This document shows, one piece after another, positions 15,210-18,780 of a stretch of DNA of 18,780 nucleotides. Origin of the DNA: a virus. A program made the translations under genes and the position numbers. The first letter of the stretch is position 1. The number at the start of each line of letters is the position of its first letter. The stretch lies in the UHGV virus genome UHGV-1706803; one strand, 5' to 3'. The notes under the pieces are model-generated. The model saw only the letters and a list, made by a program, of their open reading frames with translations, did not search any database and was not told where the DNA came from.

Positions 15210-15232
15210 ATGCAATCACATCATGGTTGCAT
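15210..15232. promoter_or_regulatory. Candidate operator: inverted repeat ATGCAA-N11-TTGCAT in the mnt-tailspike intergenic region
   Basis: 6-bp perfect inverted arms read from the sequence, about 26 bp upstream of the tailspike start and inside the 121-bp divergent region. Assignment as an Mnt operator is inference only. Confidence 0.25.
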
Positions 15233-15257
15233 CATATCATTCGTCTGGAGCAATGAA

Positions 15258-17120
15258 ATGTCAGATATCACCGCAAATGTTGTGGTAAGCATGCCTTCGC
15301 AACTCTTCACTATGGCTCGTTCTTTTAAAGCCGTAGCCAATGGCAAAATTTATATCGGTAAAATTGACACTGACCCGGTAAATCCTGAAAACCAGATTCA
15401 GGTTTATGTAGAGAACGAAGACGGCTCTCACGTTCCTGTATCGCAACCAATCATCATTAACGCTGCTGGATATCCGGTATATAACGGACAGATTGCCAAG
15501 TTCGTAACTGTACAGGGCCATTCTATGGCTGTTTATGATGCGTATGGTGCACAGCAGTTTTATTTTCCTAATGTGCTGAAGTATGACCCAGATCAACTCG
15601 AACAGCGACTTTCGTCAAATACTGGCGCATCTTTGATAGGAACCGAATCAGGAAAAACAGTCCAGGAAGAGATAGATAATATCAAGAATGAGGGTTTATT
15701 TACCGAATTTGATAATTTTTCTGACGCAAAGGCGGCGGAGATACAAAACAGAACAATTAGTATAAAATTCAAGTATGGGACAATTAATTATATTAGAAAT
15801 AATACTACAGGGACGGCATCAAGCGGAGACGCTTATGAATTCTTTGATGCCAGTGGTAACGGTTATATCATAGACGAAAAGCAACTAACGAAAAACACAT
15901 CTGGATTGATAAGTCACACGGAGATTTGGGCAGGAGAGGATCTTGATCCAACATATCTTAATAAGGCAAAAGACCTTGGTATAAGTACTTTTGTTGCGTA
16001 TACGTGGAAAGGTAATGCGTACTCATATCATGAGCACTTCCTTGATTTATGTCAGTTATACGGCATTGACGTTATTTTGCAGGCGGTTCCTAATCAACAA
16101 TACACGACAGATCTTGATGCGGATTTTTCATGGCTATCTTCGCTATTTACCCACCCGGCAGTTATTGGTCTATATCTGCTAGATGAACCTGATTTAACAC
16201 TCTACCCGTTAACCCGTCAGGGACAGATCATAGACAAGGCACGCACAATTTCGACATTGCCCCTTTATGCTGCAACTAATGCAGAAGCCAATGGAGAGGC
16301 ATTGCCTCTTCATATGAATTTTGATTACATATTTGCGTCGAACTATGGTCACTTTATCGGTGGTATTGGTATACGAAGATATTCTGCAACAACATGGGCC
16401 TCATTTGAAGAGGAGGGCTTAAGGAAGGGGCGGGTTATTCCACTTTTAACTGCATACTGGTATGAGAACGAAACTCCAACATTAAATACGGCACAGATCA
16501 GAGACGTAAACGATTATTTATCCAGGTCATATAGCAGGCTTGGCATGTGGCAGTTTTGGGGTAATAGAAGTGTAGAAGATGGATATCACTATATTGAAAA
16601 TGATGCTCAGATTTACGATTTGGTTAAAAGCTCTATCGCGTTACGGAAAGGTTTGGTGAAAAAGCCGTCCTTAGTAAGGACTTTTTTTAGAGCCGCATCA
16701 TTACCAGCAAATTGCTACAAGTATCTAACCAAACCAGCGTATCCAGCTAACATCCCTTGGTTAGACCCCTCATCCGCATCAACATGGAATGAGGCGGCGG
16801 TTCTGCGCATCAAGGCTGGAGAGAGATTTGTTGTAAACTTTGGCTCTCCAGTTAAATTAGAGTCAGTAGTTATGACGTTAAAGGACAATAACGGATTGTC
16901 TAATACTGCAACGTTAGCTCTCATCTATAACCCTCTTGTTAGTGGGGGCCAGCAGCATGCAACAACAAAAACCTTAACTGGCGGCGGGGCGCTTGAGTGG
17001 ATTTTCCCTGGAGATGGAACCCCTTCGCACTTGGTCACTACCATTGGGATAAAATGCCTTCGTAGCACAGGAACAGACTACCTCATTGTTGAGCGACTGG
17101 GCTTTGCAATTACGGGCTAA
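15258..17120 (+). CDS. 9: Tailspike protein: P22 gp9-like N-terminal head-binding domain fused to a divergent receptor-binding / putative glycanase domain, 620 aa
   Basis: ATG at 15258 with GGAG 7 nt upstream. The N-terminal 115 aa or so ([59 protein letters not shown]...NVLKYDPDQ) are the conserved P22-family head-binding domain. The remainder is AT-rich and unlike the P22 beta-helix; it includes an LLDEPD motif and alternating hydrophobic strand/helix patterns suggestive of a TIM-barrel hydrolase. Confidence 0.85.
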
Positions 17121-17132
17121 GTTAATGTATAT

Positions 17133-17150
17133 GCGGAAATGGATTTCCGC
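17133..17150 (+). terminator. Stem-loop immediately downstream of the tailspike (GCGGAAA-TGGA-TTTCCGC); possible terminator or binding site
   Basis: 7-8 bp perfect inverted repeat 13 nt after the tailspike stop. No clear U-tract follows, so terminator function is uncertain. Confidence 0.35.
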
Positions 17151-17158
17151 ACAAACGT

Positions 17159-17187
17159 TTGATAACAGCTCTCTTTATGGTTAACAT
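17159..17187 (+). promoter_or_regulatory. Candidate sigma70 promoter for the acyltransferase gene (TTGATA-N17-TAACAT)
   Basis: -35 and -10 like hexamers with 17-nt spacing, read from the sequence, about 35 nt upstream of the ATG at 17222. Confidence 0.3.
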
Positions 17188-17221
17188 TGGTGACATTACT
17201 AATTAATGTTAAATTATATAC

Positions 17222-18262
17222 ATGAAAAACAGAAACATACAGATGCTGAGAGGGGTTTCTATAATCCTCGTCCTCATTGCTCATGCAGATACAGTGTATT
17301 GGGAAGAATTGAAAAGTATAAAAAAATATATAGACCCAACCATTGGTGTGGATTTGTTTTTTATAATTTCTGGTTATCTAATGGGGGCAACCTTCATCAG
17401 AAAGGTATTATTTGACATTAACCTTAAACACACCATTTCATTTTATATCAAAAGGCTAAACAGGCTTTTCGTTCCGTGCCTATTCTGGTCTTTCATTGTA
17501 TTTGCTCTATTTGACTACTGGCACCTTGCCGGTTTTATAAAAACGCAAGAACAGGCTTTTAAGATATTTATATCTTCAGCGACATTTACTGGTAATATAT
17601 ATAATAGCATCAAGCCTAGTGGCTTCGGGTACTTCTGGTCATTAGGTGTTGAGTTCCAGTTTTATCTAATACTTCCGCTTATTCTATTAATATGCAAAGA
17701 CATGAAGTCATTAATTATCCTGCTTGTCATAATGCTTGGCTTCTACACCTGTGTTTTGAGTTTATTCCCTGAGTCATGGCAATACAGAGCAAATGCACTT
17801 TATATCGGACTTTTGATTTGGTGCGTTACTCAGAGTGAAGGCTATCACGAAATCAAGAAATCTATAAATAATAACGGATGTGTATATATTTGTTTTATCG
17901 TCGGCGCACTCATTCTTGCTGCCTTATGCTTATCCCCTGCATTATATAAAGTGCACGGAGTTAGCTTTACGGCTATATCTATTTTATTGGGATTGGCCTT
18001 CTTTATTTGTGTATGCATGGACAAACCAATAGCTGCATTTATATCAAAACCAATTGAGTTTATTGGTGATATATCTTTTTCCTTATACCTGTGCAACATT
18101 CCTGTTTATATTTTTGTGTCGAGAGAAATGTTTACGCGCGGAATGGGAAAGCCGGAAACTATGATTGTTTCTGTCGTATTAAGTATTGCGGTTGCAACTG
18201 CAAGCCGTTACACATTAGAAAAAATAGATTTTATAAAGTTAAATAAAAATCTAGTTAGGTGA
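17222..18262 (+). CDS. Integral-membrane acyltransferase family 3 protein, probable O-antigen O-acetyltransferase (Oac/OafA-like lysogenic conversion gene), 346 aa
   Basis: N-terminal MLRGVSIILVLIAHA and GVDLFFIISGYLMG motifs are characteristic of the acyltransferase_3 family; multiple hydrophobic helices; AT-rich composition; location downstream of the tailspike, as for oac in Sf6. Confidence 0.85.
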   Translation: MKNRNIQMLRGVSIILVLIAHADTVYWEELKSIKKYIDPTIGVDLFFIISGYLMGATFIRKVLFDINLKHTISFYIKRLNRLFVPCLFWSFIVFALFDYWHLAGFIKTQEQAFKIFISSATFTGNIYNSIKPSGFGYFWSLGVEFQFYLILPLILLICKDMKSLIILLVIMLGFYTCVLSLFPESWQYRANALYIGLLIWCVTQSEGYHEIKKSINNNGCVYICFIVGALILAALCLSPALYKVHGVSFTAISILLGLAFFICVCMDKPIAAFISKPIEFIGDISFSLYLCNIPVYIFVSREMFTRGMGKPETMIVSVVLSIAVATASRYTLEKIDFIKLNKNLVR

Positions 18263-18301
18263 AGGAAGAATTACCAGCAAGGAAACTAGTGATATGGGCA
18301 C

Positions 18302-18334
18302 TAGCGCAAGACTGACAGCTACGGTCTTGCGCTA
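18302..18334. repeat. Perfect 11-bp inverted repeat (TAGCGCAAGAC / GTCTTGCGCTA) with an 11-nt loop
   Basis: Read directly from the sequence, about 40 nt downstream of the acyltransferase stop. No U-tract follows. Confidence 0.5.
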
Positions 18335-18408
18335 ATCCCTCACACTATCTCATCAAGCCAGTCTGCCCACCACTGCATCATTTCTCTGCGCTTAATGTAG
18401 CGGATGCC

Positions 18409-18425
18409 TCACTATCACATAGTGA
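18409..18425. repeat. Palindrome TCACTAT-CAC-ATAGTGA
   Basis: 7-bp inverted arms read from the sequence. TCACTAT resembles the core of lambda-type Int arm-site consensus (recalled). Confidence 0.4.
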
Positions 18426-18651
18426 TGGTTCATTACTGCTTTGTAGAATGGATAGAGAACTGAGGATAAAAAGATATCCCAAAACCCAAAAATCTCATCT
18501 TTAGGATTTGCAGAAAGGGAGACGTGAACAGATACCTGCGCATGAAGACGGAACTAGTCCAGATGTGATATTTGTGGTGATCACATACATCATCAACGAT
18601 GCTCGTTATGGTGAGCTTGATGACTACCCGCTGAAGTGAAAATTGTGTTGT

Positions 18652-18671
18652 GTACCAAATTGCGTACCAAA
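18652..18671. repeat. Direct repeat GTACCAAA x2 with 12-bp periodicity
   Basis: gtaccaaattgcgtaccaaa read from the sequence, in the non-coding region at the 3' end of the window. Confidence 0.4.
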
Positions 18672-18780
18672 CTAAAATCACAAATCATGAAACCCTGGTT
18701 CATGGCGGTTCTCAGGGGTGTTGCGCGTAATCGTGAAACAAAAAGGTAGATTGTTGCTTACCGTCATTCATCATTAGGTT

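Follow-up and report, generated by a model that had tools for sequence, protein, structure and literature searches.

What is the repeat-rich DNA that closes the virus genome UHGV-1706803, where the genes of a phage run out and no intact gene follows? The stretch that we analysed, here called the window, comprises 18,780 nucleotides and carries on its plus strand the late operon of a P22-like phage, with the small and large terminase, portal, scaffold, coat, ejection proteins and tailspike; the region under study is its final 518 bases (18263-18780). A sequence-only reading had noted in this region a hairpin (18302-18334), a palindrome (18409-18425) and two direct repeats of GTACCAAA (18652-18671), all three of which are present in the sequence at these positions, and had proposed an attachment site (att) in its free-phage form (attP). 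That the region is an attachment region is borne out by homology of its P arm, by a published core and by a junction with host DNA. The form is a different one, however: with a high degree of confidence, we identify the region as the right-hand end (attR) of a P22-like prophage that is inserted in the Escherichia coli gene sbcB, which encodes exonuclease I (ExoI), and that integration was the work of a heterobivalent tyrosine integrase of the phage 2851/Sf101/mEp234 type. The type of attachment site, its core and the sbcB target are already published, and the site is essentially ordinary.

The core, which the earlier reading had suspected to lie outside the window, is found within it. At 18726-18738 the sequence CGTAATCGTGAAA matches exactly the published 13-bp core of phages 2851 and Sf101 (PMC4159516), and it is identical to the annotated att features in mEp234 and in the Shiga toxin (Stx) phage 1717. 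To the left of the core extends the P arm block of the "type 2851" attachment site (18350-18725, plus strand), which is 92-98% identical to the attP of mEp234 and Sf101, to the attR of Stx phage 1717 and to many E. coli prophages. In BLAST searches of phage records, the slightly longer stretch 18350-18755 is 92-98% identical to a part of mEp234 annotated as "prophage attachment site (type 2851)", and the same stretch in Stx phage 1717 is annotated as "duplication due to insertion"; for 18350-18738, identity to mEp234, Sf101 and Stx phage 1717 likewise amounts to 92-98%. The att of phage 2851 was reportedly first described by Strauch et al. in 2008.

The two sides of the core have different histories. 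When the window is aligned with the attP of mEp234 and Sf101 and with the attR of Stx phage 1717, all sequences agree up to the last base of the core (18738), past which the free phages read GAGGAAGGTAGG toward the integrase gene (int), and the window and the 1717 attR read CAAAAAGGTAGATTG, that is, sbcB. Because the window departs from free attP after the core and follows host sbcB, the region comprises P arm, core and the host B' side, the composition of attR. When 5,426 complete E. coli genomes were searched, 18726-18780 matched the start of sbcB (nt 49-1, preceded by 6 nt of leader) with 100% identity in most of 5,419 genomes. BL21 likewise matches at 100%; its sbcB gene has the minus-strand orientation seen in the window, with the ATG at the equivalent of position 18774. 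Genome identity and the BL21 annotation thus mark 18739-18780 as host DNA, consisting of sbcB codons 1-12 (minus strand, ATG at 18774-18772) and 6 nt of 5' leader; the crossover region corresponds to sbcB nt 37-49 on the minus strand, and the insertion point falls in codons 13-17. The comparison with bacterial genomes that had been suggested as a way to find the prophage-host junction accordingly located it at the 5' end of sbcB. The right boundary of the prophage can be set to the base, the window derives from an integrated prophage, and the source host is E. coli or Shigella.

For the DNA beyond the window, a sibling contig, L018, offers a guide. It was found via the acyltransferase protein encoded next to the region and shares 99.1% identity with the window over 11.5 kb, as far as base 18780. 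On the far side of the core, the sequence of L018 runs collinear with that of BL21 (sbcB 5' end, dacD, sbmC, yeeA). Such an extension had been recommended as a search for a tyrosine integrase and a tRNA-derived core; L018 has no integrase downstream of the core, and ARAGORN detected no tRNA in either the window or L018. The earlier observation that no tRNA is recognisable therefore stands, since the target is the protein-coding gene sbcB, and the supposed tRNA target of the P22/Sf6 kind does not. These findings bear directly on the proposal that the region is a free-phage attP of the P22/Sf6 kind, with its core, possibly tRNA-derived, and a tyrosine integrase just past the end of the window. 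The free phages of this type, namely mEp234, Sf101, APC_JM3.2 and HK140, do carry int about 215 bp after the core, as that proposal would have it, but with the core inside the window, 100% host sbcB from 18739 on, dacD downstream in L018 and no tRNA, we consider it highly improbable.

Where, then, is the integrase of this prophage? In the four free phages, int encodes a protein of 392 aa on the plus strand and begins past the core, so in the lysogen it sits at the left junction (attL). The cognate integrase, of about 392 aa, is 99% identical among 2851, Sf101 and mEp234. In Ecol_AZ146, a P22-like lysogen, attR and an attL with int are about 41 kb apart, and from this layout we place the predicted integrase gene of the present element some 40 kb away, at attL, upstream of the window and outside the 10-kb flank of L018. 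A predicted attL, in which the B side of BL21 and the P' arm of mEp234 were joined through the core, is found complete in 582 of the 5,426 complete E. coli genomes (~11%), annotated there as "sbcB | tyrosine-type recombinase".

The direct repeats are a part of the sequence-only reading that holds: the GTACCAAA octamers are very probably arm-type sites of the integrase (Int), to judge from motif scans and from comparison with homologues. The octamer occurs at 18652-18659 and 18664-18671, 12 bp apart, and each copy belongs to an extended form TTG[T/C]GTACCAAA (TTGYGTACCAAA). The two candidate P-arm sites, both on the plus strand, are thus GTGTACCAAA at 18650-18659 and GCGTACCAAA at 18662-18671, 55-76 bp from the core. 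The consensus GYGTACCARA has two sites in the whole 18.8-kb window, where 0.07 would be expected, and none of 200 shuffles reaches two. An exact 8-mer repeated within 20 nt is not rare in itself, being found in 113 of 1000 dinucleotide shuffles of 18263-18780 (the set on which the statistics for the hairpin stem and the palindrome given below are also based); the weight of the repeats comes from their presence in related loci, not from the repetition alone.

Those loci display a regular layout. In the free attP of mEp234, Sf101, APC_JM3.2 and HK140, GYGTACCARA is present five times, always in direct orientation: the P arm has two copies, homologous to those of the window, and the P' arm has three, the last of which ends about 8 nt before the int ATG in each of these phages. 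In attR junctions, only the two P-arm copies are found. Both octamers are invariant in 15 distinct homologues while the adjacent bases vary, and they are unchanged also in L021, a locus whose P arm is 83% identical. In another locus, L048, the integrase is 73% identical, and GTACA-type repeats occupy the corresponding positions of both arms: ATGTACAAAA and GTGTACATAA on the P arm, at an unchanged distance from the core, and GTACAAAG, GTACAGAA and GTACAGAA on the P' arm. The two arms have thus changed motif in concert, co-varying with the integrase. Three GTAC-type repeats keep their positions upstream of int in relatives down to 53% identity, including those that adjoin the tRNA gene argW. The Int of mEp234 contains the Pfam domains Arm-DNA-bind_3 (PF13356) and Phage_integrase. 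What was read directly from the sequences compared comprises the identities, where the junction lies, how the repeats are divided over the two arms (2 + 3) and, as described below, the sbcB frame rebuilt at attL.

In L069, L077 and L078, integrases 53-57% identical to the sbcB-type Int are encoded directly beside tRNA-Arg(CCU) (argW); the three GTACA-type repeats upstream of int have kept their places, and a GTTCA repeat family follows at greater distance. A tRNA gene and a protein-coding gene are therefore both targets of one integrase lineage.

Might the GTACCAAA repeats serve an excisionase or another accessory factor rather than Int? TorI of KplE1 binds short direct repeats (GTTCG-like) in the int-proximal arm, and the assignment of GTACCAAA to Int comes from sequence comparison. 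A separate repeat family, GT(T/C)CA, which resembles the TorI motif of KplE1, fills the P' arm further from int, however, and is the better candidate for excisionase sites; moreover, the 2 + 3 layout, the position of sites against the int start and the presence of an arm-binding domain in Int all fit arm-type sites. We therefore rate the accessory-factor explanation as rather unlikely and retain the assignment to Int. On that assignment, the N-terminal domain of Int would bind the GTACCAAA sites, and the catalytic domain would exchange strands within the 13-bp core. Excision would require the two attR sites to cooperate with the three P' sites at attL and with an AlpA/HTH_17-type excisionase encoded next to int. 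Expression of int is probably autoregulated in the manner of KplE1, because its start codon abuts the P' sites.

Several points weigh against the identification of the region as an attR of this type. We found no binding or recombination experiments on the arm sites of this integrase in the accessible literature. The host site (attB) reads GTTTC-GTAATCGT-GAAAC, a 5-bp dyad, and the phage side of the core has no matching dyad or clear core-type inverted repeat. The consensus of integration host factor (IHF), WATCAANNNNTTR, has no match with up to one mismatch within 18263-18780, a weak negative given how loose the consensus is. The window ends 42 bp past the core, and the identity of the host rests on these 42 bp and on the sibling contig L018.

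In another reading, the prophage is cryptic and the region a dead scar, its att sequences conserved by recent common descent rather than by function. The region holds the relics of two genes (intS and a umuD-like gene; see below), many prophages at the sbcB site in E. coli are remnants disrupted by insertion sequences (PMC4159516), and the homologues are mostly 92-98% identical, which limits tests of conservation. On the other side, the late operon of the P22-like phage looks complete, the core and both arm sites are intact, and the octamers persist without change even where the P arm is 83% identical, in L021, while in L048 the repeats co-vary with the integrase. A dead scar thus seems to us improbable.

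What does integration do to sbcB? At attR, the native promoter and sbcB codons 1-16 are joined to phage sequence, yielding, as the comparison with native SbcB demonstrates, a truncated fusion open reading frame (ORF) on the minus strand (18712-18774), a 20-codon stub that reads MMNDGKQQSTFLFHDYAQHP up to its stop codon. At attL, sbcB receives an in-frame ATG and 11 codons from the P' arm, and the sbcB gene of lysogens is annotated as intact, with 474 aa and the N-terminus MTDTDKQPTFLFHDYETFG in place of the native MMNDGKQQSTFLFHDYETFG. This replacement start (in-frame, about 11 codons) is kept in the P' arms of every relative with an sbcB-targeting integrase, at 59-100% identity; it sits at a constant 215-217 nt from the int ATG and consists of ATG, GTG or TTG followed by ...Q(P)TFLFHDY. 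That it is conserved in all relatives speaks for selective maintenance of an intact sbcB. Crossover takes place within the FHDYE codons of sbcB, a segment that we take to bear catalytic residues of ExoI. A promoter scan of the attL P' arm detected no sigma-70 consensus promoter for the rebuilt gene, and inspection by eye gave no clear one either, so that we infer its expression.

These observations invite a wider, speculative proposal in two joined parts, to which as a whole we grant a small chance. First, integration may rewire sbcB, such that ExoI in the lysogen would be made from a phage promoter and start in the P' arm at attL, among the proposed Int sites and the candidate excisionase sites. 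Second, the GTAC(C/A) arm motif may co-vary with the N-terminal domain of Int across the sbcB- and argW-targeting relatives. Were the first part true, host ExoI levels would track the recombination proteins of the prophage; transcription from the orphaned native sbcB promoter would run into the end of the prophage, in the antisense direction with respect to the acyltransferase gene, and would meet an insulator in the hairpin at 18302-18334. Were the second true, the joint variation of arm motif and Int N-terminal domain would amount to a readable recognition code.

The hairpin itself is located between the acyltransferase gene and a relic of intS, and shuffles and folding agree that it is not due to chance. 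The sequence TAGCGCAAGAC (18302-18312) pairs perfectly with GTCTTGCGCTA (18324-18334) to form an 11-bp stem around an 11-nt loop. The fold has a predicted energy of -25.4 kcal/mol (z = -6.4; none of 200 shuffles as good), and a perfect stem of at least 11 bp appears in 1 of 1000 shuffles. The same pattern, TAGCGCAAG..CTTGCGCTA, is found in phage lambda at 27545-27576 and in the lambda-type attR of two contigs, L015 and L016, the stem halves TAGCGCAAG and CTTGCGCTAAT being common to the window hairpin and the lambda element. With respect to int, the lambda hairpin is oriented like that of the window; its distance from the lambda core, on the left-hand side, is 155-186 bp. We take it to be the tI terminator/sib retroregulator, although the lambda record that we retrieved lacks that annotation. 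An origin of the window hairpin from an integron attC-like element or the end of an insertion sequence was dropped once the match to the lambda stem had been found.

In the window, the hairpin begins 5 nt past the stop codon of the intS relic. The T tract expected of a terminator is gone (on the minus strand the stem is followed by GTGCCCAT), and a terminator and promoter scan of 17000-18780 returned no terminator-like site, and no promoter-like site within 18263-18780; an Rfam scan of 18100-18780 at E <= 1 gave no match. The run of T after the stem, on the int-sense strand, is kept in lambda and in the variant found in strains 14EC033 and 100416. We read the hairpin as a probable inherited int-distal terminator hairpin that now lies between the acyltransferase gene and the relic of int. 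In its present position it may stabilise the 3' end of the acyltransferase mRNA or hinder transcription that enters from the orphaned sbcB promoter. A related arrangement is seen in the two strains just mentioned (L005 3955-4030; L010), where a non-P22 prophage carries, in the corresponding slot beside an sbcB attR, the gene of another acyltransferase (26% identical). This gene ends in a canonical terminator of its own, after which comes a hairpin that combines the same lambda-like stem with a loop of 30 nt and still has its T tract.

Should the hairpin or the palindrome be counted as functional parts of the att site, for example as sites for an accessory factor, as the sequence-only reading had suggested? 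Both belong to a non-coding stretch beside att, and the statistics for the hairpin are strong. However, the similarity to type-2851 attP does not set in until about 18336-18350, past the right end of the hairpin, and the hairpin travels into argW and att-lambda contexts. It therefore belongs to the module of the acyltransferase gene and the intS relic, not to the type-2851 att block. The palindrome (TCACTAT-CAC-ATAGTGA, 18409-18425, 7-bp arms) lies about 300 bp from the core within a UmuD-like pseudogene, in its SLSHSD codons. A perfect 7-bp inverted repeat with a loop of 3-5 nt arises in 96 of 1000 shuffles, the fold has z = -2.1, the right arm is altered in 4 of about 10 homologues (positions 18420-18421), and the palindrome is broken in Stx phage 1717; it is at chance level and not conserved. 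A role of either element in the att site is thus very doubtful, and of the three motifs, the repeats stay as att components in the preferred attR reading.

The mobility of the hairpin becomes apparent from the cargo cassette of which it is a part. The acyltransferase gene (17222-18262, plus strand; Pfam Acyl_transf_3) follows the tailspike gene (15210-17120, plus strand), the last of the late operon. An identical 346-aa acyltransferase, together with the hairpin and the 3' end of intS, occurs in P22-like prophages at three integration sites (17222-18394 in the window; 10001-11173 in L013-L018), and the 3' flank of the gene (18263-18301, plus strand) is identical in 7 copies of the cassette across these contexts. 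At the argW site (L013, L014 and L017), intS is full-length, its stop codon lies 5 nt from the hairpin, and tRNA-Arg(CCU) is found just upstream of int. At the att-lambda site (L015 and L016), the core GCTTTTTTATACTAA is followed by ybhB-bioA. The sbcB site is represented by L018 and the window. Apparently, integration modules were exchanged through recombination at, or close to, the 3' end of intS.

The acyltransferase protein is present in 9 draft-genome contigs. The receptor-binding part of the tailspike together with the acyltransferase gene (~15630-18349) has no nucleotide match in 50,697 phage records or in the 5,426 complete E. coli genomes, in searches where only the head-binding domain of the tailspike and the att block match. 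Sensitive blastn searches were likewise negative, both for 18255-18352 in E. coli genomes and for 17130-18352 in phages, and exact-pattern scans of the genome and viral contigs found no instance of the acyltransferase-hairpin junction. Across E. coli strains, the cargo adjoining the sbcB attR varies, consisting of acyltransferases, of a gtr-like glucosylation cluster, or of nothing.

The statement that the region lacks convincing ORFs is accurate with regard to intact genes, of which there are none in 18263-18780; it overlooks several gene pieces, namely the relics, a probably spurious antisense ORF of 82 aa and the first 49 nt of sbcB. The first relic is the 55-nt 3' end of a KplE1/IntS-type integrase gene (18340-18394, minus strand, stop codon at 18342-18340), the translation of which ends in ...KRREMMQWWADWLDEIV; it is 97.8% identical to the 3' end of intS in IME10, and the C-terminus of K-12 IntS reads ...KRREMMQWWADWL. 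From the position of the relic, full-length intS continues in L013, L014 and L017, and the window leaves intS exactly at 18394/18395.

The second relic is the C-terminal fragment of a UmuD-like (S24 peptidase) pseudogene (18403-18638, plus strand), with an in-frame stop at 18502-18504 and its natural stop at 18636-18638. In a pairwise comparison it is 53% identical to residues 51-129 of the intact UmuD-like protein of HK140 (E = 3e-25), which is encoded just upstream of the HK140 attP and matches Pfam Peptidase_S24; Pfam has no family for the fragment itself, and in PGAP annotation the corresponding sequence is a pseudogene of an S24 peptidase. HK140 (L009 1182-1571), which also has dinI nearby, and L048, the relative with the 73% identical integrase (about -600 to -320 from int), possess an intact UmuD'-like gene that directly adjoins the P arm on its upstream side; in the window, mEp234 and Sf101, only the pseudogene is present. 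The UmuD'-like gene looks like an ancestral companion of the att/int module. Antisense to this relic runs the 82-aa ORF (18433-18681, minus strand), which is probably not a gene: it has no Pfam family, is frameshifted by a 1-nt deletion in Stx phage 1717, and is annotated only in Sf101, as the hypothetical protein Sf101_0017 (L002 3084-3332), probably an annotation artefact. Also in the P arm, the 11-nt sequence AATCATGAAAC (18683-18693) resembles the core-spanning AATCGTGAAAC (18729-18739) in 10 of 11 bases; we do not regard the pair as evidence of a second core-like site, as by our estimate about one such pair is expected by chance in the region.

The gene sbcB is a standard insertion locus of Stx prophages, and what the present analysis adds is modest: the 2 + 3 layout of the arm sites, the conserved phage-borne start of sbcB, and one cargo cassette joined to three integration modules, none of which we found described in the accessible literature. 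The cassette places an acyltransferase of the serotype-conversion type in the classic cargo slot adjoining the att site.

How does the site compare with known systems? Its closest match is the phage 2851/Sf101/mEp234 type, with which it shares the 13-bp core, the insertion point at the 5' end of sbcB and a P arm that is 92-98% identical over 18350-18738. It differs in being the integrated attR form and in its left-hand cargo, which consists of the new acyltransferase, the hairpin with a lambda-like stem and the intS relic. Its virion module is of the P22 kind, a trait shared with Sf101, and neither siphoviral nor Stx-type.

The recombination module of KplE1 (CPS-53), described by Panis et al. 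(2010; PMC2951348), and those of HK620 and Sf6 resemble that of mEp234, Sf101, HK140 and APC_JM3.2 in that the int start abuts the att site and the arm sites overlap the int promoter region; as in KplE1, the excisionase gene is not co-transcribed with int. From this KplE1-like organisation, autoregulation is to be expected. The 2851-type Int is only 21% identical to K-12 IntS, however, the arm motif is GTACC, where KplE1 has one that contains TAAA, integration is into a protein-coding gene rather than argW, and the only IntS sequence in the window is the 55-nt 3' relic; the site is not a member of the IntS family. The experimentally mapped arm sites of K-12 IntS were ruled out as a validation of GTACC on account of the low identity and the different motif. 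With regard to the tRNA-targeting att sites of P22 (thrW) and Sf6 (argW), the core of the present site contains no tRNA 3' end, whereas the siblings with full-length intS do adjoin tRNA-Arg(CCU).

The logic of the site is that of lambda attP, with a heterobivalent integrase and two P-arm plus three P'-arm sites, and the window hairpin has the stem halves of lambda and the same orientation relative to int. In contrast to lambda, the five arm sites all have the same orientation as direct repeats, transcription of int leads away from att, the search for an IHF consensus was negative, and the hairpin, its T tract lost, directly follows the int stop with no att site between them. A further parallel is offered by phage 21 and e14, which integrate inside the protein-coding gene icd and carry a replacement gene end. 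In these as in the present system, the phage arm holds a diverged copy of the displaced end, such that the frame of the target is rebuilt. The part replaced here is the 5' end with the start codon, and the phage must therefore supply the signals for transcription and translation as well.

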